A stretch of DNA of 64,000 nucleotides from Acidobacteriota bacterium (GTDB lineage Bacteria > Acidobacteriota > Blastocatellia > Pyrinomonadales > Pyrinomonadaceae), in assembly GCA_023389035.1 (NCBI GenBank), contig JAEWFC010000004.1, positions 39,894 to 103,893 on the forward strand. Reading direction: 5' to 3'. Position numbers and translations under genes: made by a program. A model generated the notes under the pieces. That model saw only the letters and a list, made by a program, of their open reading frames with translations, was not told where the DNA came from and did no database searches. Shown here one piece after another: positions 2,521-54,193 of this stretch (position 1 is the first letter of the stretch; every line of letters starts with the position of its first letter).

Positions 2521-3368
2521 TTATGAGAAAGGTCGTCATTGCATCATTTTTAATTTGTCTTCTGACGATTTGCGCTTCGGCTCAACACAGACCATTTGAA
2601 GATTTCCGGAAAGCCGTAAACGAAGAACCAGGCGGATTTGCGGGAAACAAAGGAAATCTCTCAAAAGTCTTCAACGATGAAAGGGTGCGGTTAGGGGAGC
2701 GTTTTGAAACTGAGCTATGGCTATACATTGAGGACGACCCTGACAAGCATTTTTGGATAGCCGCCTTCATTGACTCAAAATCGTACTTACACGGTAACTC
2801 CCCGCTGCCCGAACTAGCATTTCGGATACGCGAGAAATCACTCGGACTCCTCGGAAACGACAAAGTAAGTCGAGGACGAAGAGTTTCCATTCTTCGCGAA
2901 TTGGCAATTGCGTCCAAATTGACTGGAAATCAAGAGCAAGCGATCCGATTTCGCGACGAAGCTGAAGAATTAGCCAAAGATCCCGACTTAAGCTCCTATA
3001 TTTCCGGCAGAACCCAATACGATGTGTGTATATATGCGAACCTTACCGGCAGTATTTCATTGTGTAATGAAAAAGAGGCTCCGAAAGAAAGGATCATCTC
3101 TGCCGGTTGGATGAATAGCCGGGCGATCAACTTTCAGAACCCTAGATATCCGTCGGCCATCAAGAAGCCGAGATCAGTGGCTCGAGTTGAGGTTCGGATC
3201 ATGACGGACGTAGAGGGAAATGTTATTTCAGCAGCCGTCTCTCGCGGTCCGGTAGACTTTCATAACGCGGCTCTCGATGCAGCGAGAAAGCTGAAATTTT
3301 CACCCACTTTATTGTCTGGTGTTCCGACAAAGGTTTCCGGGTGGGTCTCATACGACTTTAAACCTTAG
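2517..3368 (+). CDS. Secreted protein with C-terminal TonB_C-like domain (cassette 2)
   Basis: The true start is most likely ATG 2517 (MIMRKVVIASFLICLLTICASAQ signal peptide). The long Arg-rich N-terminal extension of track ORF 2265..3368 reads across the mqn tail copy out of frame. The C-terminus VARVEVRIMTDVEGNVISAAVSRGPVDFHNAALDAARKLKFSP matches the TonB C-terminal domain pattern. Confidence 0.65.
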   Translation: MIMRKVVIASFLICLLTICASAQHRPFEDFRKAVNEEPGGFAGNKGNLSKVFNDERVRLGERFETELWLYIEDDPDKHFWIAAFIDSKSYLHGNSPLPELAFRIREKSLGLLGNDKVSRGRRVSILRELAIASKLTGNQEQAIRFRDEAEELAKDPDLSSYISGRTQYDVCIYANLTGSISLCNEKEAPKERIISAGWMNSRAINFQNPRYPSAIKKPRSVARVEVRIMTDVEGNVISAAVSRGPVDFHNAALDAARKLKFSPTLLSGVPTKVSGWVSYDFKP

Positions 3369-3378
3369 AAGCTATCGT

Positions 3379-3522
3379 GGCCGCGAGTTGACCCGCGCCT
3401 AGGCCGCTGAAGGCGAGGTGAAAAAGACCAAAGCCGAGATCATCACCATAATCCGAAACGCCGGCTTCGAAGCCGTAGAACGCGACACCGTCTACAACCG
3501 CGTGGAAAGGGTCACCGCATAA
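3379..3522 (+). pseudogene. Displaced copy 3 of the mqnE-like 3' end (about 47 codons) with an in-frame TAG
   Basis: Translates [46 protein letters not shown], aligned with [47 protein letters not shown] of the intact gene. TAG at 3400-3402 replaces the Tyr codon. Confidence 0.8.
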
Positions 3523-5849: not shown

Positions 5850-6302
5850 ATGAATGTCCAACAACAGATCGATGGATATATCGAGAGCCAGCCCGAACCC
5901 AAGCGCGGTGAACTGCAGGCATTGCACGCGTTGATCCTGTCAGTAAGTCCGGCGGCGAAATTGTGGTTCCTTGATGGTAAAGACGCCGAAGGCAAGGTCG
6001 TTTCCAATCCGAATATCGGCTACGGCTCTCGACCACATGAATACGCCGATGGGGCGATCCGTGATTTTTACCAGATCGGCCTGAGTGCAAACAAAACCGG
6101 GATCTCTGTTTATATCCTCGGTATCGAAGACAAGCTCTTCCTGGCCGAAAGCTACGCCAAAGACCTCGGCAAGGCGACAGTCACCGGCTATTGCATCAGG
6201 TTCAGAACTCCAAAAGATATAAACACCGATGTTCTTGCAGCGGCGATCAGATTTGGGTTTGAGAGTTCGAATGAAAAAGGTAATGGAGGGCAAGAATCGT
6301 GA
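5850..6302 (+). CDS. DUF1801 (YdhG-like) domain protein
   Basis: IDGYIESQPEPKRGELQALHALI ... GYGS ... YQIGLSANKTGISVYI pattern as recalled for DUF1801. Confidence 0.6.
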   Translation: MNVQQQIDGYIESQPEPKRGELQALHALILSVSPAAKLWFLDGKDAEGKVVSNPNIGYGSRPHEYADGAIRDFYQIGLSANKTGISVYILGIEDKLFLAESYAKDLGKATVTGYCIRFRTPKDINTDVLAAAIRFGFESSNEKGNGGQES

Positions 6303-6826
6303 ATTCAGCTTTTTATGACATGCTCGAGGCGATTGGCAATCGCTCGGCAATGTATATCGACCCTTCACAGTCGATTACCGCACTCTACAACTTCCTCAGC
6401 GGATACCAGTCTGGCAGCAACTGGAAGAAGATTGTTAGAAATACCGAGCCATCATACGCCGAATTCAATAATTGGGTCGCGATGAAGTTGAACTTTTACG
6501 AGGCAACGAAAGGTTGGCGCAGAATGCTTCTTGAACGCGAAAATGGCGATGAAGAGAGAGCTTTCAAAGAATTCTTTGTTCTCCTCGATGAGTTCCGAAA
6601 CCGAAAAGAAACGCGATTGTTCCGAGCCGAGCTTCCCAAAAAGCCAGGCCGAAAGACAAAGATCCTTGAGATCGTCAAATATACGGACGACGGTGGTGTT
6701 TTTGTGCGGTCGATCAACTCTAGAAACAAGATCATCGATGAGATGTATTGGCAGACATTAAAGAACGCATTTGAGATCTATGAAATGCAAGTTGGCAAAT
6801 TAAGCTGGGAAGAAATAAAGAATTGA
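6299..6826 (+). CDS. Hypothetical cytoplasmic protein (orphan, immunity-protein-like size and composition)
   Basis: 175-aa ORF. The GTG start overlaps the upstream stop (GTGA); an alternative ATG lies at 6320. No recognisable domain. Confidence 0.5.
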   Translation: MNSAFYDMLEAIGNRSAMYIDPSQSITALYNFLSGYQSGSNWKKIVRNTEPSYAEFNNWVAMKLNFYEATKGWRRMLLERENGDEERAFKEFFVLLDEFRNRKETRLFRAELPKKPGRKTKILEIVKYTDDGGVFVRSINSRNKIIDEMYWQTLKNAFEIYEMQVGKLSWEEIKN

Positions 6827-6857
6827 TGCCGCCGAACGTTAATAAGGGCAGAACAAT

Positions 6858-7457
6858 ATGAGAAAAATAATTGCCTGTGAATTTATAACGCTTGATGGTG
6901 TTATACAGTCGTCTCCGGAGAACGGGTTTAAGTATGAAGGTTGGTTTTTTGGTTATACGGACGAGGAGTGCGGGTCGGTGATACAGGAGCGGTTGGCGAA
7001 GGAGGTCGATCTGCTGCTGGGGCGAAAGACGTTTGATATCTGGGAACCGTACTGGCCGACGCATTCGGACTTTTGGCCGAACGTGATGACGGCGACCAAA
7101 TACGTGGCCTCGAACACTCGCGATTCGAGCGACTGGCAGCCGACGGTATTCTTAGGCGGCGATCTTGCGGAAAAGGTCCGCGAACTTAAACAAACTGACG
7201 GACCGGACCTGCACGTTTTCGGCAGCGCCGATATGCTTCAGACGCTTTTCAAAGCCGATCTCGTCGACCGGCTGGAGCTGATGATATTTCCCATCACGCT
7301 GGGCCAAGGAAAACGCCTGTTCCAGGGCGGCACGATCCCCGCCGCCTTCAAGGTGACAGAGAGCCAGATATCACCAAACGGCGTGATCATCGCAAACTAT
7401 GAACGTGACGGCGCTGTAAAAAGTGGCGGGGCTCCTCAGATAAGTGAGGACGATTAA
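6858..7457 (+). CDS. Dihydrofolate reductase family protein (RibD C-terminal domain, YyaP/YwjB-like)
   Basis: [17 protein letters not shown] ... [11 protein letters not shown] ... [12 protein letters not shown] ... [19 protein letters not shown] is the typical RibD_C pattern. Confidence 0.75.
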
Positions 7458-7460
7458 ACA

Positions 7461-7658
7461 ATGGATCTACTAACGCGATACTGGTTCAAATTCGATGGTG
7501 CGGATAATTTTGTGAAATGGGTCGACGTTACCGCCTACAGCATTGAAGATGCGCGAGGCGTCATGCAGCAACATGTCTTTATAAATGGGCAAATGCCAGA
7601 GCTAGTAACCGTAACCGAGAATATTGACGTTTCGATGCTGGATGAGGGACATATATAG
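7461..7658 (+). CDS. Small hypothetical protein, probably a truncated member of a family whose conserved C-terminus continues after two TAG codons (to 7718)
   Basis: 65-aa ORF starting 3 nt after the DHFR-like stop. The same frame continues ...GHI*PNIGMPTSRGVW*PNLNSY*. A second copy of that tail at 8333-8388 reads [18 protein letters not shown] with no internal stop. Confidence 0.5.
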   Translation: MDLLTRYWFKFDGADNFVKWVDVTAYSIEDARGVMQQHVFINGQMPELVTVTENIDVSMLDEGHI

Positions 7659-7662
7659 CCTA

Positions 7663-7718
7663 ATATCGGGATGCCCACGAGCCGTGGTGTGTGGTAGCCC
7701 AACCTAAACTCTTACTAA
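7663..7718 (+). repeat. 56-bp repeat copy 1 (3' coding tail of the small-protein family)
   Basis: 52 of 56 nt identical to 8333-8388 by my count. Differences are agc/atc, tag/tat, ccc/cca and tac/tat, two of them synonymous third positions. Confidence 0.8.
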
Positions 7719-7794
7719 ACGGCGTGATCATCGAGACTACGACCGCGACGGCGATGTAAAGACCGGCTCACCTCAGATAGATGAGGAATAATAA
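7717..7794 (+). pseudogene. Displaced, frameshifted copy of the DHFR-like gene 3' end
   Basis: aaacggcgtgatcatcgagactacgaccgcgacggcgatgtaaagaccggctcacctcagatagatgaggaataa aligns to 7376-7457 ([26 protein letters not shown]) with a 1-nt and a 3-nt gap. It begins on the TAA of the preceding tail. Confidence 0.8.
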
Positions 7795-7816
7795 GATCTG
7801 ATTGAAACTAAGCACT

Positions 7817-8194
7817 ATGGGAGACGAGCGAGATTTTAACACTATTGAAGAGTTTTTACTGAAAGTTCCTAGTATCACTGGGACGATCGGCAAGGGCAGA
7901 TTCGAAAATGGAAATTGGTGGGTCAAATTTAAGATAGACATCTCGCATCCGCTTGCCTGGAGTGTTGTACAGGAGTTCGGTTGCATCTTCAACTACATTT
8001 CAGCAAATGAGAGGCTGCCGACCGTCTTTATGCCTGTGTCGCCGGCTCCTTACCTAAATGGCGGCCCCTCGGAATTTCTGTCATGGGTTATAGAGTCAAA
8101 AGATCCGAAATTCAAACCGGGTACTGCAAAAAAGTGGCTCGAAGGACGACTTCCGCAACCCGTCGACGATATCTCGATGTGGAACTCAGAATAA
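7817..8194 (+). CDS. Hypothetical cytoplasmic protein (orphan cassette gene)
   Basis: Track ORF 7802..8194 starts at TTG; the first ATG is at 7817 (MGDERDFNTIEEF...). No recognisable domain. Confidence 0.5.
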   Translation: MGDERDFNTIEEFLLKVPSITGTIGKGRFENGNWWVKFKIDISHPLAWSVVQEFGCIFNYISANERLPTVFMPVSPAPYLNGGPSEFLSWVIESKDPKFKPGTAKKWLEGRLPQPVDDISMWNSE

Positions 8195-8332
8195 TCAGAA
8201 TAAAGATGACCAATTGGAATCCAAAAATAGAAACTACAACTCTCGTCGTAACCATAGTAGTGGCGATGTTTGGAGGGAAAGGTTGGCGCAATTGAAGGGG
8301 AGATCATAAATCAACTTCGTGAAACGCCGGTG

Positions 8333-8388
8333 ATATCGGGATGCCCACGATCCGTGGTGTGTGGTATCCAAACCTAAACTCTTATTAA
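8333..8388 (+). repeat. 56-bp repeat copy 2 (orphan 3' tail fragment of the small-protein family)
   Basis: See 7663-7718. Upstream of 8321 the frame is closed (TGA), so only the tail survives. Confidence 0.8.
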
Positions 8389-8458
8389 TGCCTACTCGCC
8401 AAAGGATCACAAAGCCTCTTGTGAGGTTGAGCCTTCCGTGAAAAGACGTATCCGCCAA

Positions 8459-9355
8459 ATGAGAAAGATCATGAATTGGAGAGCAAACATGAGCACAACG
8501 CTACTTGTCCTATCGATGCTCCTGACGATTCTCCTGTCGGGTGTCGCCTTCGCACAGCAAAAACCGACGACCGGCTATGCTCCGGTTAATGGACTCAAGA
8601 TGTATTACGAGATCCACGGCAGCGGCGAGCCTGTTGTGATGCTTCACGGCGCGTTCATGGCGATCTCGGGGGACTGGGAAGAATGGGTTAAAGAGCTTGC
8701 GAAAACTCGGAAAGTGATCGCGGTCGATATGCAGGGGCACGGACGAACGGCCGATATCAAGCGCGATATTACATACGAAAACCTTGCGGACGATGTGGCG
8801 GGGCTGCTCGAACATCTGAAGATACCAAAAGCGGACATCGTCGGCTATAGTCTGGGCGCAGGTGCGGCAATAATGACCGCGATCCGCCATCCGAACAAGG
8901 TGCGAAAGGTCGTCAGTATCTCCCACCCGATACGGCGCGACGGCTGGGTCAAGGAAGCGAACGACTTTTGGCCAAACTTCAAGCTGGAAATGATGAAAGG
9001 CACGCCCGCCGAAACCGAGCGAGAGAAGCTAAATCCGGTCCCGAACAGCTTTCCGGCGTTCTTTGATCACATCAAAGCTGCGGCCATGCGACCGTGGGAC
9101 TTCGGCGCTGATGAGTTCAAAGCGAACAAAGCTCCGATCTTCGTCATCCACGGCGATGCGGACGGAGTCCGGTTGGAGCACATTGCCGAGATGTACCGAC
9201 TGAAAGGCGGGGGCAATATTCACGGGGACATGCAGCCACGTCCAAGTTCTAGACTGGCGATCATCCCAGATGCAACCCACGTCACTCTCATAAACAGAAT
9301 GACAACGATAGTTCCGATGATCAACGACTTTCTTAATGCCGTACCGCCGAATTGA
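8459..9355 (+). CDS. Secreted alpha/beta-fold hydrolase
   Basis: Signal-like N-terminus ([24 protein letters not shown]), HG oxyanion motif (VVMLHGAF), nucleophile elbow GYSLG, and late Asp/His (HGDADG, ATHV). Start is uncertain (GTG 8438, ATG 8459 or ATG 8471). Confidence 0.7.
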
Positions 9356-10656: not shown

Positions 10657-11925
10657 CTACTCCGTCCTCAACGCCTCGATCGGATCCAGACGTGCCGCCT
10701 GCCTCGCGGGTACGACACCGAAAAACATACCGACCGCACAGGAAACGCCCATAGCGGCTAGGACCGCCCAGACTGGCAGCGATAGCGGAAGGTTGGTTGC
10801 CCATGCGAGAAGCCATATTAGTGCCCCGCCGGCAGCCGATCCAAAGATCCCGCCGATCAACGTCAGAGTGATCGACTCGATCAGGAACTGGGTGAGAATG
10901 TCGCTCCGCCGCGCTCCTACAGCCATACGAATGCCGATCTCACGCGTCCTTTCCGTGACCGACGACAGCATCATGTTCATCACCACAATTCCACCGACGA
11001 AAAGCGCTATCGCTGTTAGCGGATAAACTATCGCCCCGACTATGCCGGTTAACGATGCCGAAAAAGCCTGAACGCTCCTGGCCGTAACGAAGCTGAAATT
11101 ATCCTCTTGGTCGGTGCCTACGAGTTTCCGTTTTATGCGTATCGCTACGCGAACGCGCTCTTCGACATCGTCAAGCGTCAGGCCCGAACCGTCCCTCGCT
11201 TTCGCGAGTATGGCAAGCGAACGAGACCTTCCGCCGAACACGCGTGTGAATGTCCCGAGCGGTACCTGGATAAAACCGTCCTGAGACGCTCCGAACGTCG
11301 AACCGCGCGGTTCCGCGACACCGACAACTTGATACGGCACCTGGCCCAGCCTGATCTCCTGGCCGATCGCCCCCGAATTCGGGAAAAGCTCATCCACTAT
11401 GTCCTGACCGATCACGCAGACATTGCGGCGGAACCTGTCGTCAGTCTCCGTCAGGTCGCGGCCGTATGCAACCGAAATGTTTGAGAGGTTGGTAATGTTG
11501 GGAGTGACGCCTTGGATCGATACACCGACGAGGGTTTTGGAAAGACGGCGCGCGGGTAGAACCGCATCGCCCTGGGCCCCGAATTCGATCTCGCCACCCA
11601 GCTGCTCCTCGAGATATTCGAGGTCTTCGACATAGATATCGGGTCGTTTGGCGGTCGCCTCGACAAACGCCTGGCCATCTCCGCCGAAATCCTGGAACGC
11701 CGCTTTTTCGATCCGCAGCACATCCGGAGCGAAACCGGCCGTCGACTGCACGACGAAAGCCTGAGCTCCCTGCAGCAAAGCGGCAACGATGACCACGACC
11801 GCGACTCCTACGACAACTCCTACTACCGTCAGTACCGAACGCGTCGGACTGGCCCGGATCGAGTCCCAAGCAAGGGTTATTAGTTCCCTGAGCAGAGTGA
11901 CTCGTGCTGTCGTTGAATGATTCAC
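10657..11925 (-). CDS. ABC transporter permease, MacB-like periplasmic core plus FtsX domain
   Basis: 422-aa paralogue of the downstream gene (VVMNMMLSSVTERTREIGIRMAVGARRSDI). Confidence 0.8.
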   Translation of the reverse strand: MNHSTTARVTLLRELITLAWDSIRASPTRSVLTVVGVVVGVAVVVIVAALLQGAQAFVVQSTAGFAPDVLRIEKAAFQDFGGDGQAFVEATAKRPDIYVEDLEYLEEQLGGEIEFGAQGDAVLPARRLSKTLVGVSIQGVTPNITNLSNISVAYGRDLTETDDRFRRNVCVIGQDIVDELFPNSGAIGQEIRLGQVPYQVVGVAEPRGSTFGASQDGFIQVPLGTFTRVFGGRSRSLAILAKARDGSGLTLDDVEERVRVAIRIKRKLVGTDQEDNFSFVTARSVQAFSASLTGIVGAIVYPLTAIALFVGGIVVMNMMLSSVTERTREIGIRMAVGARRSDILTQFLIESITLTLIGGIFGSAAGGALIWLLAWATNLPLSLPVWAVLAAMGVSCAVGMFFGVVPARQAARLDPIEALRTE

Positions 11926-12084
11926 GCTTTATCCCACCTTGTATTGCCAGTCCTCGTAATATTGTAAGTCATTGGCCGGCAGAGTGTTGGTTTGATGCGA
12001 CAATTATGGAAACTTAGGAGTGTGGATCCCGACGAACGGCGGTATCATCGGAAAGAGGATCACCGATGATAACCGGATTCATAC

Positions 12085-12113
12085 TTGCACGAAGCAAGTG
12101 AGATGGATATAAT
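12085..12113 (+). promoter_or_regulatory. Sigma-70-like promoter giving a leaderless mRNA for 12122
   Basis: TTGCAC (12085-12090), a 17-nt spacer, then TATAAT (12108-12113). ATG 12122 lies 8 nt after the -10 box. Confidence 0.5.
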
Positions 12114-12121
12114 CGCGTGCT

Positions 12122-12622
12122 ATGAAACAGGCAAGAGCAACTATATGTCTTTGGTACGATGGCGACGCTGAAGACGCGGCGAAATTTTATGCTAAGACGT
12201 TTCGGGATTCATCGGTTGATGCGGTGCACAAGGCTCCGGCGGATTATCCTTCGGGGAAACAAGGCGATGTGATCACAGTCGATTTCACAGTAATGGGAAT
12301 TCCATGCCTGGGTCTGAATGGCGGGCCTGAGTTTAAGCATAGCGAGGCGTTTTCGTTCGTGATTGCGACCAAGGATCAGGAGGAGACCGACCGTTATTGG
12401 AATGCTATCGTCGGAAACGGCGGCGAGGAAAGCATGTGCGGCTGGTGCAAGGATAAATGGGGCGTTTCATGGCAGATAACGCCGATCGCACTTACCGAAG
12501 GCTATACCGATCCCGACCCTGAGGTCGCCAAACGGGTATTTGAAGCAATGATGCCGATGAAAAAGATCGACGTCGCCGCGATCGAGGCGGCCCGCCGCGG
12601 TCAAGCGAAGGAGATCGAATGA
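12122..12622 (+). CDS. VOC/glyoxalase-superfamily protein (PhnB / 3-demethylubiquinone-9 3-methyltransferase-like domain)
   Basis: ICLWYDGDAEDAAKFYAKTF ... CGWCKDKWGVSWQITP blocks typical of that family. Confidence 0.7.
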   Translation: MKQARATICLWYDGDAEDAAKFYAKTFRDSSVDAVHKAPADYPSGKQGDVITVDFTVMGIPCLGLNGGPEFKHSEAFSFVIATKDQEETDRYWNAIVGNGGEESMCGWCKDKWGVSWQITPIALTEGYTDPDPEVAKRVFEAMMPMKKIDVAAIEAARRGQAKEIE

Positions 12623-12960: not shown

Positions 12961-13007
12961 GCCGCCCCGGTTATCTAACTGTCGAATGTCTCTACCCGAT
13001 CAAGACC

Positions 13008-13196
13008 TAAACTACTGAACTTCAGAGTTAAAATACTGATTTTAGGACTTAAACTATTTAATTTAAGAGCTAAACTGCTGAATTTAAGAGTTAAAATGCT
13101 CAACTTAAGACTTGAAATACTAAATTTAAGACTTAAATTACTGAACTTAAGGCTTAAATTACTTAATTCAGGGCCTAAGTTGAATAGCTTTGGAGC
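13008..13196. repeat. Tandem array of about nine 21-bp AT-rich units (consensus roughly TAAAnTACTGAAnTTAAGAGT)
   Basis: Units start at 13008, 13029, 13050, 13071, 13092, 13113, 13134, 13155 and 13176 (the last is degenerate). The array is much more AT-rich than its flanks and lies between the cupin gene and the DUF4256 gene. Confidence 0.9.
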
Positions 13197-13263
13197 TTTT
13201 TCAGCTAATTTTTCTCGCTTCATATGATCCTCGGGACGAGCATCCCGACGACCGACTTGTGAT

Positions 13264-13833
13264 ATGACAAAGGCACAAAAGACGACGGCTAAGTTATCGC
13301 CGGCAGATCGCGATGAGCTGGTTGAGACGCTGCGGACGCGTTTCGAAGAGAACATGGCCCGCCATAAAGGCATTAAGTGGGCCGACGTCGAAAAACGTAT
13401 TGATGACGCGAAGCTGCAGGCTCTAGCCGCAATGGAAGGCACCGGCGGCGAGCCTGACGTTGTAGGTCGTGATAAGAAGACGGGCGAGGTCATCTTTTTC
13501 GATTGTTCGGCGGAAAGCCCAAAAGGCCGGCGAAGCGTCTGTTATGACCCTGAAGCTTTAGAATCCCGGAAAGAACATAAGCCGAAACACAGTGCACTTG
13601 GCATGGCGAGGGATATGGGGGTTGAGATCCTGACCGAAGATCAATACCGCGACCTGCAGAAACTAGGTGAATTTGACCTGAAGACCTCAAGCTGGATCGC
13701 GACCCCTGACGATATTCGGAAACTTGGCGGCGCTCTGTTCTGCGATCGCCGCTACGACACGATCTTCACCTACCACAACGGTGCTGAGTCCTATTACGGA
13801 GCACGCGGATTCCGCGGTTCGCTCAGCGTTTAG
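13264..13833 (+). CDS. DUF4256 domain protein
   Basis: MEGTGGEPDVVGRDKKTGEVIFFDCSAESPKGRRSVCYD ... GGALFCDRRYDTIFTYHNGAESYY matches my recollection of DUF4256. Confidence 0.7.
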   Translation: MTKAQKTTAKLSPADRDELVETLRTRFEENMARHKGIKWADVEKRIDDAKLQALAAMEGTGGEPDVVGRDKKTGEVIFFDCSAESPKGRRSVCYDPEALESRKEHKPKHSALGMARDMGVEILTEDQYRDLQKLGEFDLKTSSWIATPDDIRKLGGALFCDRRYDTIFTYHNGAESYYGARGFRGSLSV

Positions 13834-38114: not shown

Positions 38115-38184
38115 TCGCCCCTACGGGGCTCGGGTTCGGTTTTACGCTACGTTCTACAAACATTTGGCTCCTGCGGTGCCGCGG
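38115..38184. repeat. Intergenic twin-hairpin repeat type B, copy 1
   Basis: tcGCCCCtacGGGGCtcgggttcggttttacgctacgttctacaaacatttGGCTCCtgcGGTGCCgcgg; matches 38898-38966. Confidence 0.85.
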
Positions 38185-38214: not shown

Positions 38215-38790
38215 TTACGTTTTCGGTAACCGTTCACTATGAAAACGCACAATATGCTCCGGCTCGTTTTGGTACACTGCCTCCCATTCGTAGAGGTATG
38301 ATAGGCGAACAGATAACCCCGTCGCTAGATGCTCCGCAGGGAGACTGAAGATCAACGCTTTCCCCGATTCAAGAGGTAAGAGAAAGCAAGAGCCGGAATT
38401 GTAACCGAAGGGAACACCGGAGTCCGATTCGCGCCTAGCCTGCCTCACGGTGCGCTCTATATCGTACATTACGCCAACTTCGGTTTCGTTGTCCGCAGCT
38501 ATGAGCAGTTCTCCAGTCTTAGAAACTCCGAAGGAACAGAAGCGAATCTGAAACTTGGAATTATTAACTAGACGCAACCAGATCCCTTGATCGCTCTCGG
38601 TCGATCGAATAGGCGGCCGCTTGCCGTATCGAACGAATTCGATGTATACACCCGGTCGCGCCGTGTCAACCCGGAATTGGTCAACCTTCTTATTCTTGAG
38701 TTCATTCGGTACGTTCTGTGCAATGCCATGTGAAGCACAAAACACGTAAGAGAGAACTAAGAAACAGATCAGCGATCGTCGAAATTTCAT
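38215..38790 (-). CDS. Secreted hypothetical protein
   Basis: MKFRRSLICFLVLSYVFCASHGIAQ signal peptide; 191 aa; no domain recognised. Confidence 0.55.
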   Translation of the reverse strand: MKFRRSLICFLVLSYVFCASHGIAQNVPNELKNKKVDQFRVDTARPGVYIEFVRYGKRPPIRSTESDQGIWLRLVNNSKFQIRFCSFGVSKTGELLIAADNETEVGVMYDIERTVRQARRESDSGVPFGYNSGSCFLLPLESGKALIFSLPAEHLATGLSVRLSYLYEWEAVYQNEPEHIVRFHSERLPKT

Positions 38791-38897
38791 AATTATGGCA
38801 TTAATGCACTTTTATTCTATACGTCCAGGGCGAATGCTATTTGAGGAATGCTCGGATCGTTCTGTTTGGACGGCCGGAGCGGGGTCCGCTAATGGTG

Positions 38898-38966
38898 TCG
38901 CCCCTACGGGGCTCGGTTCGGTTTTACACTACGTTCTACAAACATTTGGCTCCTACGGAGCCGCGG
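38898..38966. repeat. Intergenic twin-hairpin repeat type B, copy 2
   Basis: tcGCCCCtacGGGGCtcggttcggttttacactacgttctacaaacatttGGCTCCtacGGAGCCgcgg. The track ORFs 38795..39004 and 38841..39140 across it are judged spurious. Confidence 0.85.
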
Positions 38967-42018: not shown

Positions 42019-44598
42019 TTACCTGACGAATGCATTCGGAACGGGCTGATCACCCGCGGTGCCGAATCCGACGATCTGCACGCCCGCCAGCGTACTCGCG
42101 ATGTACCATGTCCCACTGCGGAAGACGGCCGCGTCGGTCTTTCCGTCGCCGTCGTAATCGCCGGGTGCGGGAACGTCGCCGTTCTGGCCGAACGTAAAGG
42201 CATAGAAACTGAGATCCTCGCTTCGCAGCACGTACCATTCACCGGTGCTCGGCCGCCAGAAAGCGATATCGGTCTTTCCATCCCCGGTGTAGTCCGCGGG
42301 AACGGTCTTGTCAGCCGGCCCGCCAAACTGCGTTGCGAGTAGTCCCGCCGAACTTCTGCTGATCCACCATTCACCGCCGTTCGCTCCGTTAGGCCGATAG
42401 ATGGCGATATCGTCGGTACCGTCGCCGTCATAATCGGCAGTTACGGGAACGTCGCCGACAGCACCGAAGGAGGTGATCGTCGTTCCGCCGTCGCTCGAAC
42501 GCGAGATGAACCATCCGCTGGTCGTCGGCCTGAAGACAGCTACGTCATCCTTCCCGTCGCCGTCATAATCGCCGGTCACGGGCACATCGCCGTTGGCTCC
42601 GAATGGAAATGCGTAGTAGGTAAAGTCTTCGCTGCGAAGGACATTCCAGAACCCGTCAGACGGCCTGAAGAAAGCGATGTCCATCTTGCCGTCGCCGGTA
42701 TAATCGCCCGGGGCGATAATGTCGTTCGGAGCGCCAAACTGCAGAGCGGGAACCTGGCCATCGCTGCTGCGGCTCCACCACCATTCACCCGCGCCGGGCC
42801 GGTAGATCGCAATGTCTGTCTTTCCGTCCCCTTCGAAATCGAACGACGTACCTCCGACACCGTCTGTCGGCCGGCGTTCGAATGCACCGATGTCAGAGAT
42901 CGCTCCGCCAGTTCCGTCGCCGTCCTGCGGGCGTGCGATGCCACGCTGGTCGGTCGGAGGAAAAGTTGTCGGGTCGCCTGCGTCGATCGCGGGACTGCCG
43001 ACGCGAAGAGCATGAGTGCGTGTTGGTCCGCCATTGAAAGCTAGGGTCCCAAGTTCAGGATCCTGACCGTAAACATTTCCCGTGGTCGGACCGCTGATGG
43101 TCGCGCCGGACGTGCTTCGGACGAGATTATACCCTTGGGAAATAATCGGGTTGAACAGGTCCGGCCCGGTGTTGCCGGCGGTATTATTGGCAACAATTGT
43201 GTTTTTTATGCTCGACGGAGTATCGCCGGTCCGATTTGCATAATGAATGCCGCCGCCGTGGCCGGTGGTAGGGCTGCCTATGCCCGACGTTCTATTGCCG
43301 ACGATCGTTGAATTTGTGATGACGACCTCGCTGTTAGCCCCGCCGGGATAGTTGTCGAAAATGCCGCCGCCGTTTACCTCGGCGAAATTGCCGCTGACGG
43401 TACTGTTATCCAAATTCAATTTCCGTTCGGCCCAGATACCGCCGCCATTGCCTTTGCGGTCGGGGAATCCTGACCCTGGGACATACCGGGTTGAGTTGCC
43501 GCTGATGGTCGAGCCGGTAATGTTCGTCAGCATCGTCGTCCCGATGCCGCCGCCATTACCCAGCCCGCCTGTGGCGTTTCCCGTGCTGGCCGCGTTGTTC
43601 GAAATCGTCGAGTTGGTGATCGTCACGAATTCAGTGTCAGTGCCTGCTCCGCTCGCGTAGATCCCGCCTCCGCCGGCGGTCGCAGTATTGCCCGACACAT
43701 TTGAGTTGTTTACCGTTAATTTGAAGGTGTTTCTGATTCCGCCGCCCTGAGTGTCGCCGCCCGCCGTATTGCCCGTGATCGTAGAACTGTTCACGGTTAT
43801 CTCGCCGCTGTTAAATATGCCGCCGCCGCCGTTAGAATTGCCTGCGCCGCCCGAAACGTTGTTCGTTATCGTCGATCCCGTTATTGTCATTATCCCACTA
43901 TTGCGAACCGCTCCGCCGCCACCGAGCGTTGTGCCGCCGGTCATCGTCGAATTCGTGATCGTCACCGTTCCGGAATTACTATGGATCGCACTGCCGCCAT
44001 TGCCATTGATGTTCGTGCCGGTTGTGAGATTGTTGATAAACTGACAATTGTTGATGTTCAGAATCCCGCTGGATGCATTGGGGGCGGAATTGAAGATCGC
44101 GCCGCCTGTGTTGGAACTATTCTGTGTAAAGACGATATCGGTCAGCGTCATAATGCCGCCATTCGAGATCGAGCCGCCCCCATTGGTGGTGCCGTTGGCA
44201 AGTGTCAATCCGCTTATCGAGACCGTGTCGATCCCGGGAAAATTGTTAAGGCCCTGAAGAAGAAAGTGCCTGGTTACGTTATTGCCGCTAATGGTCAAAA
44301 GATTTGCGCCTGGTCCGGTGATCGTCAAAGTATCAACGATATTAGCGTTAGGACTGATACTGATCGCCGTTGCTAGCGTGATCGTGCGCGGAACGCTGAA
44401 GAACGCCGAATCAAAAACAATTGTGTCGGCTGTGGAAGCCTCGTTCGCATCGAGTACCGCCTGCCGCAGGCTGCCGGGGCCGGAGTTGTCGGCATTTGTC
44501 ACGGTAAACGTCGCAGCGGACACGGTCTGAGCCGCAATGAAGAACACCGCGGCGAACGCGATCGAAAGAGTGAAGTTGAGTGTAGGCTTAGTTCGCAT
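42019..44598 (-). CDS. Secreted protein: N-terminal parallel beta-helix repeats plus C-terminal FG-GAP/VCBS repeats
   Basis: Start at ATG 44598 (AGGAAGGA RBS; [28 protein letters not shown]). [13 protein letters not shown] followed by many GGGI/GGAI...N...T..N.S.N repeats. The C-terminus has repeated DYDGDGK(T/D)D.A.(F/Y)RP..G.W modules. Confidence 0.8.
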
Positions 44599-44724
44599 GA
44601 GTTTTTCCTTCCTAGATTTTGTTGTTCGGTGATGTATGCGGTAAACGGAGATAAAGTAAGACAAATTTTTCGGGCGTTGTCTCGCTGACGATCTGAAGTA
44701 TTCCCTTTCGACCGCACGGACATC

Positions 44725-52201: not shown

Positions 52202-54193
52202 TTATTGCAGCGGAAGCGCCTGCAAGGGTGCGTCACCGTCCAAGCCGAACTGCATGGCGTGAAACGCACCGTTCGAGCTGTTCAGGCGATACCAGACGCC
52301 GGTCGAGGGCCTGAACACGGTCATATCGGAACGGCCATCACCATCGAAATCGGCCGCGGCCGGAATATCGCCGAGCATACCGAACGCGGTCGCACGGAAG
52401 CCGCCGTCGCTGCTTCGCAGCCAGTACCAAACGCCGTTCGACGGACGCCATACCGCTACGTCTTTACGGCCGTCACCATCCAGATCTGCCGCGACAGGAA
52501 CGTCACCTGTCAGGCCGAACTGCACTGCACCAAACGAGCCATTCGAACTGTTCAGCCTGTACCACACCGACGAGGACGGCCGAAAAACGCTGAGTTCGCC
52601 CTTGCCATCGCCGTCAAAATCTCCGGGAACAGGTATGTCACCCGCCAGGCCGAAAGCGGTCGCGTGGAATGCACCGTTCGAGCTGTGCAGTCGATACCAG
52701 ACGCCGTTCGACGGGCGAAATACCGCTACATCGGCCTTGCCGTCGGCGTCGAAATCGGCCGGAACAGGTATATCACCCGCGAGCCCGAAACCGACCACGT
52801 CGACGGTGTTCGTGGCCGACTTTATCCGCCACCACGATCCCGCCCGGAAGATCGCAGGGTCGGATTTCCCGTCGCCATCGAAATCCGCGGCTGCCGGAAT
52901 ATCTCCCACTTGGCCGAATTGGAAAGCGTTAAAACCGCTCGCGCTCCGGTTCAGATACCACGCACCGTTCGACGGCCTGAAGACGCTGATGTCTGATCTG
53001 CCGTCACCGTCGAAATCATACGGTGCCCTCACGGTGCTTATCGGTGTCATGCAGCTGCTGTTACCGGTCAAGAAACTTCCGATCTCGCCCCGGGAAAAAT
53101 TGCAGAACGTAAGCGGCGTAGTGCCGGTAAGCTGCGTGTTCATCAATGTGTTCGAACAAGCCTGGGGCGCATCCGCATGGTTTCCGCCGAGGTTGTGGCC
53201 GAGTTCGTGTGCCGTCACCAAATATTTGCCCGGCGCCCAGCCGACGTGTCCGCTGAGGCCGTATGCAAACGCGGGATTCGCACATATCACGCCGACGAAC
53301 GCAAAGCCTTGTGATTGGGCGAAAGACTTGCCTGTGAACAGATGGGCCGCGTTTCGCGAGACTCCGCCGTGATTCGTGTTCCAATAGGCCTGAAAGCTTC
53401 GGAGCAGGCCGTCCATATTGCTGCCTGTGAAAGGGTCGGCTGTGGACCATGAATGTTGATAAACCACACGAATGGTCACGTTGATCTCGGACGAGAACGT
53501 GCCCTCCGCCATGTTCAGTATCGAAAGGATCTCGGCATTTGCTGCCGCCGGACCGCCGTTCATCGAGACGAACTGGTTGTCAGCCTCGGTCGCGATGTCC
53601 ATTCGCCGAAGGGCTTGCGTTGCTTCAGGTGAGCCATTAGCTGCCATTTCCCTGCCGGTTTCGATCTTTACAGGCATTTCGGCCTCACACCAGAAATCTT
53701 CGCGGTGCAAGACGTCTTCAGCTCTATAAACTACGGAATCATTCTCGCTGGCAGTCGATGAATAGCGGCTCGCGGGTTCGATATACAGCCGCTCGCTGCC
53801 GATGTCGAAATAGCCTTCGACGCGGCCGCCGTCGATCGTAAGACGCGCGGCGGAGCCAATAACGCCATCGATGCGGCCTCGGAATGTGGTGACCGGCAGT
53901 TCGGGCAGCGTTCTAAGGCCGGCAGGGCCGCGGTCTTCAGCCCGGTAAAATGGAGAACGAAGGTCGTTTGGCTCAACACTTAAGTTAAACTGACGGCCGC
54001 GGGCCGCGAACGAGAGCGTGCGTGAATGGCCAGCCGCAGCCTCAGGCGCTGCGATGCGAACGACGTCAAACGCCGAAAAATGATCGGAATATTTGCGGTC
54101 GCCGCCGGGTTGCTGAGCGCTCAGAGAGCCCGTGTAAACGAGCGTAAGAAGACACACTGCGAGCGTCCGCGCGACAAAGGGGACAACTTTCAT
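52202..54193 (-). CDS. Secreted zinc metalloprotease (metzincin, reprolysin-like) with C-terminal FG-GAP/VCBS repeats
   Basis: Start ATG 54193 (MKVVPFVARTLAVCLLTLVYTGSLSAQ). HELGHNLGGNH zinc site. The C-terminus has six or more DFDGDG(K/R)SD..VFRPS.G.WY modules. Confidence 0.8.
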   Translation of the reverse strand: MKVVPFVARTLAVCLLTLVYTGSLSAQQPGGDRKYSDHFSAFDVVRIAAPEAAAGHSRTLSFAARGRQFNLSVEPNDLRSPFYRAEDRGPAGLRTLPELPVTTFRGRIDGVIGSAARLTIDGGRVEGYFDIGSERLYIEPASRYSSTASENDSVVYRAEDVLHREDFWCEAEMPVKIETGREMAANGSPEATQALRRMDIATEADNQFVSMNGGPAAANAEILSILNMAEGTFSSEINVTIRVVYQHSWSTADPFTGSNMDGLLRSFQAYWNTNHGGVSRNAAHLFTGKSFAQSQGFAFVGVICANPAFAYGLSGHVGWAPGKYLVTAHELGHNLGGNHADAPQACSNTLMNTQLTGTTPLTFCNFSRGEIGSFLTGNSSCMTPISTVRAPYDFDGDGRSDISVFRPSNGAWYLNRSASGFNAFQFGQVGDIPAAADFDGDGKSDPAIFRAGSWWRIKSATNTVDVVGFGLAGDIPVPADFDADGKADVAVFRPSNGVWYRLHSSNGAFHATAFGLAGDIPVPGDFDGDGKGELSVFRPSSSVWYRLNSSNGSFGAVQFGLTGDVPVAADLDGDGRKDVAVWRPSNGVWYWLRSSDGGFRATAFGMLGDIPAAADFDGDGRSDMTVFRPSTGVWYRLNSSNGAFHAMQFGLDGDAPLQALPLQ

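Follow-up and report, generated by a model that had tools for sequence, protein, structure and literature searches.

Silent 3' ends of ordinary genes behind their working copies in Pyrinomonadaceae: a DHFR-like locus that reads as a patchwork of two alleles

Known systems with displaced or duplicated gene ends

The arrays closest to the one reported here are those left by rhs C-terminal displacement, for whose tips a circle model has been proposed (Jackson et al., 2009, BMC Genomics 10:584; PMC2935791), and the orphan cdiA-CT/cdiI modules are similar as well. Another comparable process is the insertion of restriction-modification (RM) genes with long target duplication (Nobusato et al., 2000, Gene 259:99; Furuta, Abe and Kobayashi, 2010, PMC2853133), in which direct repeats of 30-420 bp enclose the insert; these repeats are present in single copy in empty-site genomes and often span a stop or start codon (PMC2853133). 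The locus considered here lies in a 64,000-nt stretch of DNA from an Acidobacteriota bacterium of the family Pyrinomonadaceae (GenBank assembly GCA_023389035.1, contig JAEWFC010000004.1, positions 39,894 to 103,893 of the forward strand); this whole stretch is called the window, and positions are counted from its first letter. In this locus a RibD_C/DHFR-like gene is followed by a small gene, X, then by a displaced copy of the 3' end of the DHFR-like gene, by a second small gene, Y, and by a displaced copy of the 3' end of X, before an alpha/beta-hydrolase gene is reached. The locus appears to combine parts of two alleles, DHFR-X-hydrolase and DHFR-Y-hydrolase, in a patchwork, and similar displaced tails recur behind other ordinary genes of the family.

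The likeness to the rhs arrays (PMC2935791) is considerable. In both, an intact gene is followed by silent fragments, each of which opens with a piece of the conserved part of variable length (tails a and a' of the DHFR-like gene, tails a1, a2 and a3 of mqnE, 35 cases among the loci scanned), small genes lie in between, the new material is laterally acquired, no recombinase is present and the old ends are shunted downstream. As with rhs, the displaced pieces are allelic here, given their third-position bias (65% and 60%), the best relic matches in other genomes and the colinearity with a contig designated L089. Unlike the rhs arrays, the anchors are ordinary enzymes (MqnE, the RibD_C reductase, POR, KatG) and also glyoxalase and DoxX, and no polymorphic toxins are involved. 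Additionally, the repeated piece is the extreme 3' end of the gene, whereas in rhs it is a core segment upstream of the variable tip; the protein product is unchanged here, and the cargo is a gene behind the stop codon.

A further process of interest, homology-facilitated illegitimate recombination (HFIR) in natural transformation, was reportedly described in 2002 by de Vries and Wackernagel and, in the same year, by Prudhomme and coworkers. It requires a host that can be transformed and combines one homologous anchor with a second junction that is illegitimate and has 3-10 nt of microhomology, and it has been shown experimentally in Acinetobacter, Pseudomonas and Streptococcus. To our knowledge it has not been documented in Acidobacteriota, and it is not typically reported to leave the anchor end duplicated. 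The present locus would be like HFIR in that foreign DNA was added beside a conserved gene, by one homologous anchor and one microhomology junction, and resident DNA was lost or kept according to the position of the junction. In the literature on toxin-antitoxin cassettes with 3'-end duplications no direct precedent was found, and no description was found, in Acidobacteriota or elsewhere, of arrays of housekeeping-gene tail relics with toxin-antitoxin or immunity-like cargo.

Structure of the DHFR-X-Y-hydrolase locus

The order of elements claimed by a first-pass annotation made from the letters and their open reading frames (ORFs) was confirmed, with a at 7374-7457, X with b at 7461-7718, a' at 7717-7794, Y at 7817-8194 and b' at 8333-8388. 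The elements are as follows.

6858..7457, + strand: RibD_C/DHFR-like gene, the anchor (Pfam PF01872, E=3.3e-21)
7374-7457, + strand: tail a, the last 84 nt of the DHFR-like gene
7461..7658, + strand: X, 65 aa, a truncated member of a small-protein family of 80-95 aa, ending on an in-frame TAG at 7656-7658
7659..7718, + strand: b, which once coded for the C-terminal part of X (PNIGMPTSRGVW, stop, PNLNSY, stop), of which 7663-7718 is the repeat copy
7717..7794, + strand: a', displaced DHFR-like 3' end from another allele, with one 1-nt deletion and beginning on the TAA of X
7795..8194, + strand: DHFR-Y spacer, then gene Y (7817-8194), whose 125-aa product is of a conserved family with no known function
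8195..8332, + strand: Y-hydrolase junction remnant (8195-8224 solid; 8225-8332 probable decayed hydrolase 5' end, h')
8333..8388, + strand: b', orphan 3' end of an X-family gene, whose frame opens only past a TGA at 8320-8322
8459..9355, + strand: alpha/beta-hydrolase gene, the right-hand conserved neighbour (Pfam Abhydrolase_1, E=9.5e-22)

Read from left to right, the locus is DHFR-a, X-b, a'-Y-(hydrolase-junction remnant), b', hydrolase. The identical arrangement was found in 7-8 contigs of independent assemblies (ENA, JGI, NCBI, Logan); it is therefore a real genome structure, and an assembly artefact was ruled out. At least 12 related loci represent the empty state, with no gene between the DHFR-like gene and the alpha/beta-hydrolase gene.

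Tails a and a' (7374-7457 vs 7717-7794) are ~78% identical and differ by two gaps, of 1 nt and 3 nt (blastn E=2e-11), and the longest identical run between them is 17 nt. Both gaps had been read as part of a frameshifted copy; both are indeed present, but only the 1-nt gap is damage, as the 3-nt gap reflects a codon that differs between alleles: the working tail of L089, a farmland metagenome contig, has the same shorter form. Tail a' is closer to the working tails of other species (85.7% with L024, 87% with L051) than to tail a of its own locus (78.7%). In L089 the RibD_C gene is directly followed by a homolog of Y (87% identical at the protein level), and the window is colinear with this contig over a', over the spacer and on into Y, with the blastn match starting exactly at 7717, where a' begins. 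On the other side of Y, the contigs L084-L088 carry a Y homolog (90% protein identity), then 52 nt and then the alpha/beta-hydrolase gene, and positions 7790-8224 of the window are colinear with this region at 85-86% (blastn), that is, 30 nt beyond the stop codon of Y. From these alignments, a'-Y is one colinear allelic block derived from a DHFR-Y allele, and at least 30 nt after Y, probably ~138 nt, are the remains of a Y-hydrolase junction. In this interval a 29-codon ORF (8207-8296) encodes a peptide, MTNWNPKIETTTLVV..., that resembles the signal-peptide N-terminus of the hydrolase (p=0.0002, shuffle test). In DNA the likeness to the hydrolase head has p=0.03 for 8207-8335, and 8225-8335 alone was not significant in this test.

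Tails b and b' (7663-7718 vs 8333-8388) share 52 of 56 nt (93%). The 32-nt core of this repeat matches at those two places only, and none of 100 shuffles gave two matches. Only four positions differ between b and b', three of them third codon positions (p ~0.11). In the first-pass annotation b had been considered a conserved tail behind the X gene, but it turned out to be coding: the only close database relatives of X, of 81 and 88 aa, read through the b region (...LDEGHIRPNMGPPSFRGVWYP...). A profile search for the X family over 1.84 billion representatives (threshold E<=1e-3) yielded 822 clusters, typically of 80-95 aa, and among the matches listed the full-length members cover a C-terminal RGVW(Y/F)P motif; the X protein of the window stops at profile position 62. 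Its frame reads ...EGHI-TAG-PNIGMPTSRGVW-TAG-PNLNSY-TAA, with the natural TAA at 7716-7718 and the second in-frame TAG inside b at 7695-7697, where b' has TAT, and the frame of b' opens at 8323 only. Since the in-frame TAG cuts off the true C-terminal part, X is a truncated and probably dead member of its family. A structure model of X built from three sequences reached only pLDDT 60.8 and was unusable. Elsewhere, an X-family gene (P0002) was found in an NADH dehydrogenase operon, between nuoF and nuoG, overlapping the nuoG start (L094, 1550-1795; also L095).

Gene Y had been described as an orphan, which does not hold, as its family is conserved across phyla and has more than 1,400 members. 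A total of 1,425 homologs of ~126 aa were retrieved from Pyrinomonadaceae, Xanthomonadales and Verrucomicrobia, with 64-90% identity among the top 120. The AF2 model of Y is confident (pLDDT 83.6) but gave no PDB match below E=0.1.

Displaced tails at mqnE and across the family

A sister locus in the same window shows the same kind of arrangement behind mqnE, in this case with two displaced tails.

655-1755, + strand: mqnE (MqnE TIGR03700, 488 bits), with tail a1 at 1548-1755
1757-2311, + strand: DUF6438 gene
2313-2520, + strand: displaced mqnE tail a2, frame intact
2523-3368, + strand: TonB_C gene
3379-3520, + strand: displaced mqnE tail a3

The last 92 nt of a2 are of a different allele type from a1 (89% identical to L017 and 70% to a1), and a3 is 90% identical to L015. 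Over 46 nt, tails a1 and a2 are identical without interruption, and identity within the 49-nt middle segment of their alignment is 95.9%. The neighbour after a relic is the neighbour of the full-length gene elsewhere: a3 is followed by p211 as in L009, and a2 by the TonB_C gene as in L016, where mqnE itself abuts the TonB_C gene. Gene callers report a 70-aa ORF at 2308-2520, which is a relic and no gene. The DUF6438 gene and p211 returned nothing in NCBIfam or PADLOC.

With the DHFR-like protein, 80 related loci were retrieved, almost all of them from metagenome-assembled genomes of Pyrinomonadaceae or Blastocatellia. A protein-level scan of these loci and the window gave 35 tail copies downstream of the parent gene, compared with 9 tails upstream, 5 heads downstream and 7 heads upstream as controls. 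The proposal that small genes are recurrently added behind resident stop codons, originally made from the two loci of the window, is supported by this excess. Of the 21 loci in which the 3' end of mqnE is included, 11 have between one and three displaced mqnE tails. Further genes that serve as anchors encode a 2-oxoacid:ferredoxin oxidoreductase (POR), a peroxidase-domain (KatG-type) protein, a flavoprotein-ferredoxin, glyoxalase, DoxX and a TonB_C protein. The cargo between anchor and relic consists mostly of toxin-antitoxin pairs and related genes (BrnT/BrnA, DUF433/DUF5615, PIN, HicA, ParE, HTH antitoxins, Uma2 nucleases); it begins a few nt past the anchor stop codon, all units are on the same strand and, in most of ~27 cases, the cargo stop codon lies 0-22 nt from the relic. 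The relics are 46-245 nt long, their left edges fall at differing codons and their right edges at or near the stop codon. A nucleotide-level relic scan was discarded because spurious ORFs and paralogs made its results too noisy, and an alignment of 13 X-family sequences was too diverse for a locus scan.

The pattern of divergence bears on where the displaced tails come from. Between mqnE relics and the working tail of the same genome, 170 of 261 differences (65%) fall at codon position 3 (chi-square p=6e-27); for the other anchors the count is 88 of 147 (60%, p=6e-11), and the baseline, between working tails of different genomes, is 63%. As this bias is like that of working tails, the relics diverged inside functional genes of other lineages and were silenced recently. 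The displaced tails, from these substitution patterns, derive from other lineages and not from local duplication; local tandem duplication was ruled out by the colinearity of a'-Y with L089 together with the third-position bias of the relics.

Some related loci show variations on this arrangement. In L036 (10600-12230) a second displaced DHFR tail (~12075-12175) follows different cargo, namely an IS200/RAYT-like gene (11060-11425) and several copies of an 80-nt REP-like repeat, and a similar RAYT-like gene is found in the mqnE cargo of L020 (2079-2579). Copies of the 5' end of the DHFR-like gene (its first 31-45 codons) were also observed, in L004 (166-264), L006 (2767-2874), L027 (14288-14428) and L076 (1030-1128). 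In L004 and L006 the head copy precedes the full gene by ~850 nt and is thus a mirror-image relic, which suggests insertions before start codons; the copy in L027 follows the DHFR-like gene at a distance of ~3.7 kb, and in L076 it abuts the remaining gene and looks like a frameshift.

Origin of the patchwork

No integrase, transposase or reverse transcriptase (RT) gene was found within +/-10 kb (precomputed Pfam list), and the relics have no common junction motif, no relevant inverted repeats and no attC-like hairpin. The varying boundaries, the lack of a motif and the lack of a recombinase gene exclude site-specific systems and favour host recombination between divergent alleles, each event having a single illegitimate junction. 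Consequently, an integron was rejected (no IntI gene in the same +/-10 kb, no attC, varying boundaries), as was a site-specific island at the gene 3' end (no integrase; relic left edges at different codons and lengths of 46-245 nt). A diversity-generating retroelement was also rejected: no RT lies within +/-10 kb, and the mismatches between a and a' are of several kinds, with gaps, and are not adenine-specific. The locus is a recombination scar and no device, and it is very probable that it is an allelic patchwork produced by non-site-specific additive recombination. In such a process DNA of a related lineage would be added and not swapped in: one end would recombine within the conserved gene, the other end would be joined illegitimately to a point within the resident gene copy where a few bases match, and the 3' end of the resident gene would survive as a silent relic. 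The joins at this locus do look illegitimate, with 2-5 nt of microhomology; at the b|a' junction the overlap is AA if exact, or ACTAA/ACCAA with one mismatch.

For the particular history of this locus a path of two events is put forward tentatively, and we rate its chances a little below even. The native allele would have been DHFR - X' - hydrolase. A foreign DHFR(a') - Y - hydrolase-head would then have entered, anchored upstream and replacing the native DHFR, with its other end joined inside the tail of X', so that the X body was deleted and b' was left. Next, DHFR(a) - X(b) from a native-type strain would have entered, again anchored upstream, and would have been joined to the beginning of a' exactly past the X stop, so that a'-Y was moved downstream. 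Finally, X would have gained at least one nonsense mutation. We infer the order of events, the one-sided homologous anchoring (of HFIR type or in a circular Campbell variant) and the uptake of DNA. This path resembles the more than 35 standard relics, and its polarity agrees with the idea of the first-pass annotation.

Several points weigh against this reading. The hydrolase-head remnant is weakly supported past 8224, and the microhomology at the junctions amounts to just 2-5 nt. The intermediates that the path calls for, DHFR-X-hydrolase and DHFR(a')-Y-b'-hydrolase, are absent from the public assemblies searched, and exact-protein look-ups with X, Y, the DHFR-like protein, the hydrolase and the closest DHFR homologs (87-89% identity) returned the same arrangement or unrelated contexts only; the order of events is unproven because no intermediate allele was found. 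The path also needs two events where its main rival needs one. Additionally, random breakpoints do not predict that the cargo stops 0-22 nt from the relic, for which later deletional trimming is the default explanation. There is a slim chance that this tight packing reflects an active mechanism that cuts or copies gene-sized units at gene ends, for example via transcripts, and inserts them past the stop codons of genes that are expressed.

The two-event path competes mainly with a single insertion, with long target duplication, into a native DHFR(a)-X(b)-hydrolase locus. A ragged fragment of ~610 bp, a'-Y-h' (7719 to ~8332), would have been captured exactly at the X stop, and a duplication of the last ~56 bp of X, perhaps through template switching or the filling-in of a staggered break, would have given b and b'. 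The single insertion has in its favour that one event would suffice, that b and b' (93%) are far more alike than a and a' (78%), that both flanks are of the same allele type and that the middle block breaks off within each of the two genes that used to adjoin it. As in the insertions of RM systems (PMC2853133), the repeat spans the stop codon of the target, the target gene stays intact, no mobility genes were found nearby (the same Pfam list, +/-10 kb) and the cargo is of the addictive or selfish-module kind; for a and a' an empty site is also known, in the loci (at least 12) where the DHFR-like gene directly precedes the hydrolase. Unlike the RM insertions, whose target copies are near-identical, the repeats here are 78-92% alike with third-position differences and represent two alleles, although b and b', at 93%, may be of either kind; the cargo comprises toxin-antitoxin pairs, immunity-like and other small genes, and the relics form arrays of two or three. 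The repeats are allelic across the family and not fresh duplications, and the three third-position differences among the four between b and b' hint at two alleles even there (p ~0.11). Furthermore, a single insertion makes a/a' a by-product of a ragged cargo end, yet in appearance nothing sets it apart from the standard tail relics, of which there are more than 35, and an empty-site genome for X, with a single copy of b/b', was not found among public assemblies. On balance a single insertion seems a rather doubtful account of the locus.

The mechanism favoured by the first-pass annotation, single-crossover integration of a postulated small circle carrying tail a plus X, is considered unlikely; it is taken here as a RecA crossover of Campbell type within the resident DHFR tail, and the circle would have formed in a donor by recombination between flanking tail repeats. 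Its topology equals that of the last step of the two-event path; a cassette flanked by tails could in principle loop out and re-enter any genome that bears the anchor (Jackson et al., 2009, PMC2935791), and the mqnE tails a1 and a2, with their 46-nt identical stretch and 95.9% identical 49-nt middle segment, count in its favour. On the other hand, the 17-nt identical run between a and a' is short for a RecA crossover, the identical stretch of mqnE is no crossover mark because it is conserved in all genomes, and the first cargo-tail junction would still require an illegitimate event. The integration model also leaves b' and the hydrolase-junction remnant unaccounted for, and a'-Y is a single allelic block. 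The topology that it implied, X with tail a entering a locus that already held Y and an X remnant, survives as one of two readings allowed by the locus, the opposite polarity, with the Y block inserted at the X stop with a 56-bp duplication, being equally possible. The data cannot separate a Campbell-type circle from linear one-sided recombination.

A dedicated system that inserts cassettes at stop codons, whether integron-like, based on an RT acting on transcripts or relying on a trans-acting enzyme, is very unlikely. The tight spacing would suit it, with cargo that begins a few nt behind the anchor stop and ends 0-22 nt before the relic in most cases, and so would the single orientation of every unit. 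Like integron arrays and islands at gene or tRNA 3' ends, these arrays consist of promoterless small genes on one strand, often of the toxin-antitoxin type, and like the 3'-end islands they show direct repeats of the gene 3' end flanking the insert. Unlike either, they have no integrase gene, no attC and no fixed crossover, and the units are single genes of 0.3-1 kb. Integrase and RT genes were missing within +/-10 kb, the junctions share neither a motif nor an attC-like hairpin, the relic boundaries vary, the Y block is ragged with ends reaching into both neighbour genes, and the relics are allelic. Local tandem duplication of a-X-b, after which the copies diverged and Y took the place of the second X body, would produce an interleaved a, b, a', b' that resembles two tandem units, but it is extremely improbable, given that 78% identity for a/a' and 93% for b/b' is inconsistent with one duplicated unit, that a'-Y is colinear with a natural DHFR-Y adjacency and that relic divergence is biased to the third codon position.

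Possible immunity function of the cargo

The suggestion that the small genes have an immunity or antitoxin role receives indirect support from the toxin-antitoxin cargo in relatives, from X-family genes behind RHS genes and from an Imm53 gene in one homologous array (L136). Profile searches with X, Y and the ORF at 6320-6826 found nothing in Pfam, NCBIfam or PADLOC, X matches no described family and its window copy is truncated, and neither Y nor this ORF gives any hint.

Genes of the X family stand behind RHS-repeat or Rhs-core-end genes in three distinct contexts (6 of 41 loci). In L098-L100 the X-family gene directly follows an RHS-repeat protein (PF05593, E=1.7e-17) with overlapping stop and start codons, in L101 it follows an ORF with YD-repeat motifs, and in L124 and L125 it follows a protein with an Rhs core-end motif. 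Most other X-family genes, the window copy included, stand behind unrelated genes, most of them a few bases away. By this genomic context, X is a plausible orphan-immunity family. In the arrays of the closest DHFR relatives, L136 carries a gene of the Imm53 immunity family (1598-1906) whose start overlaps the preceding stop codon, and L133 carries a CAP12/PCTIR TIR-domain gene (6472-7392); the presence of these genes indicates that defence and immunity cassettes populate this type of array.

Other features of the window

The stretch from mqnE to the hydrolase is an array of small genes on one strand (ArsR-type HTH, AHSA1, DUF1801, RibD_C, hydrolase and others), the order of which is permuted among Pyrinomonadaceae genomes. 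Between DUF1801 and the DHFR-like gene, the ORF at 6299/6320-6826 (168-175 aa) has no flanking relic; a homolog at the same position was seen in L055 only (77% aa identity), and in L049, L057 and L063 the DUF1801 gene abuts the DHFR-like gene with no homolog of this ORF. Promoters and terminators in 6200-8600 were not above chance expectation and Rfam gave no match in the window. An RNA element in b, b' or a' was rejected, as the fold z-scores (+1.1, -0.1 and -0.9) were no better than those of shuffles.

Further repeats occur elsewhere in the window. A hairpin-rich direct repeat of ~70 nt (38115-38184 and ~38841-38962, 94% identical, the only two copies in the window) flanks a minus-strand gene for a secreted protein (38215-38790) and may represent a repeat-flanked insertion or a REP-like element. 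Nine tandem 21-nt units (13002-13190) lie within a minus-strand ORF (12975-13493) and imply a 7-residue protein repeat. The last ~90 residues of an 881-aa protein (42019-44664, minus strand) are 55% identical to a partial match at 52751-53023, 8 kb away on the same strand, which is probably a paralog and no relic.

Significance

How toxin-antitoxin pairs, orphan immunity genes and small accessory genes enter genomes without mobile-element genes is poorly understood. In Pyrinomonadaceae such entries leave datable, allele-typed footprints, in the form of silent housekeeping-gene 3' ends that line up behind the working copy, and these footprints make the process countable, orderable and directly testable, both for the source of the alleles and for circles versus one-sided recombination. 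For annotation, short ORFs such as 2308-2520 are relics and not genes. A partial tail downstream of its parent gene, differing from it mainly at third codon positions, provides a signature for recently gained genes in uncultured soil bacteria. The arrays described here represent a recurrent way for Pyrinomonadaceae to add small genes behind the stop codons of ordinary genes, with no visible mobile-element machinery.

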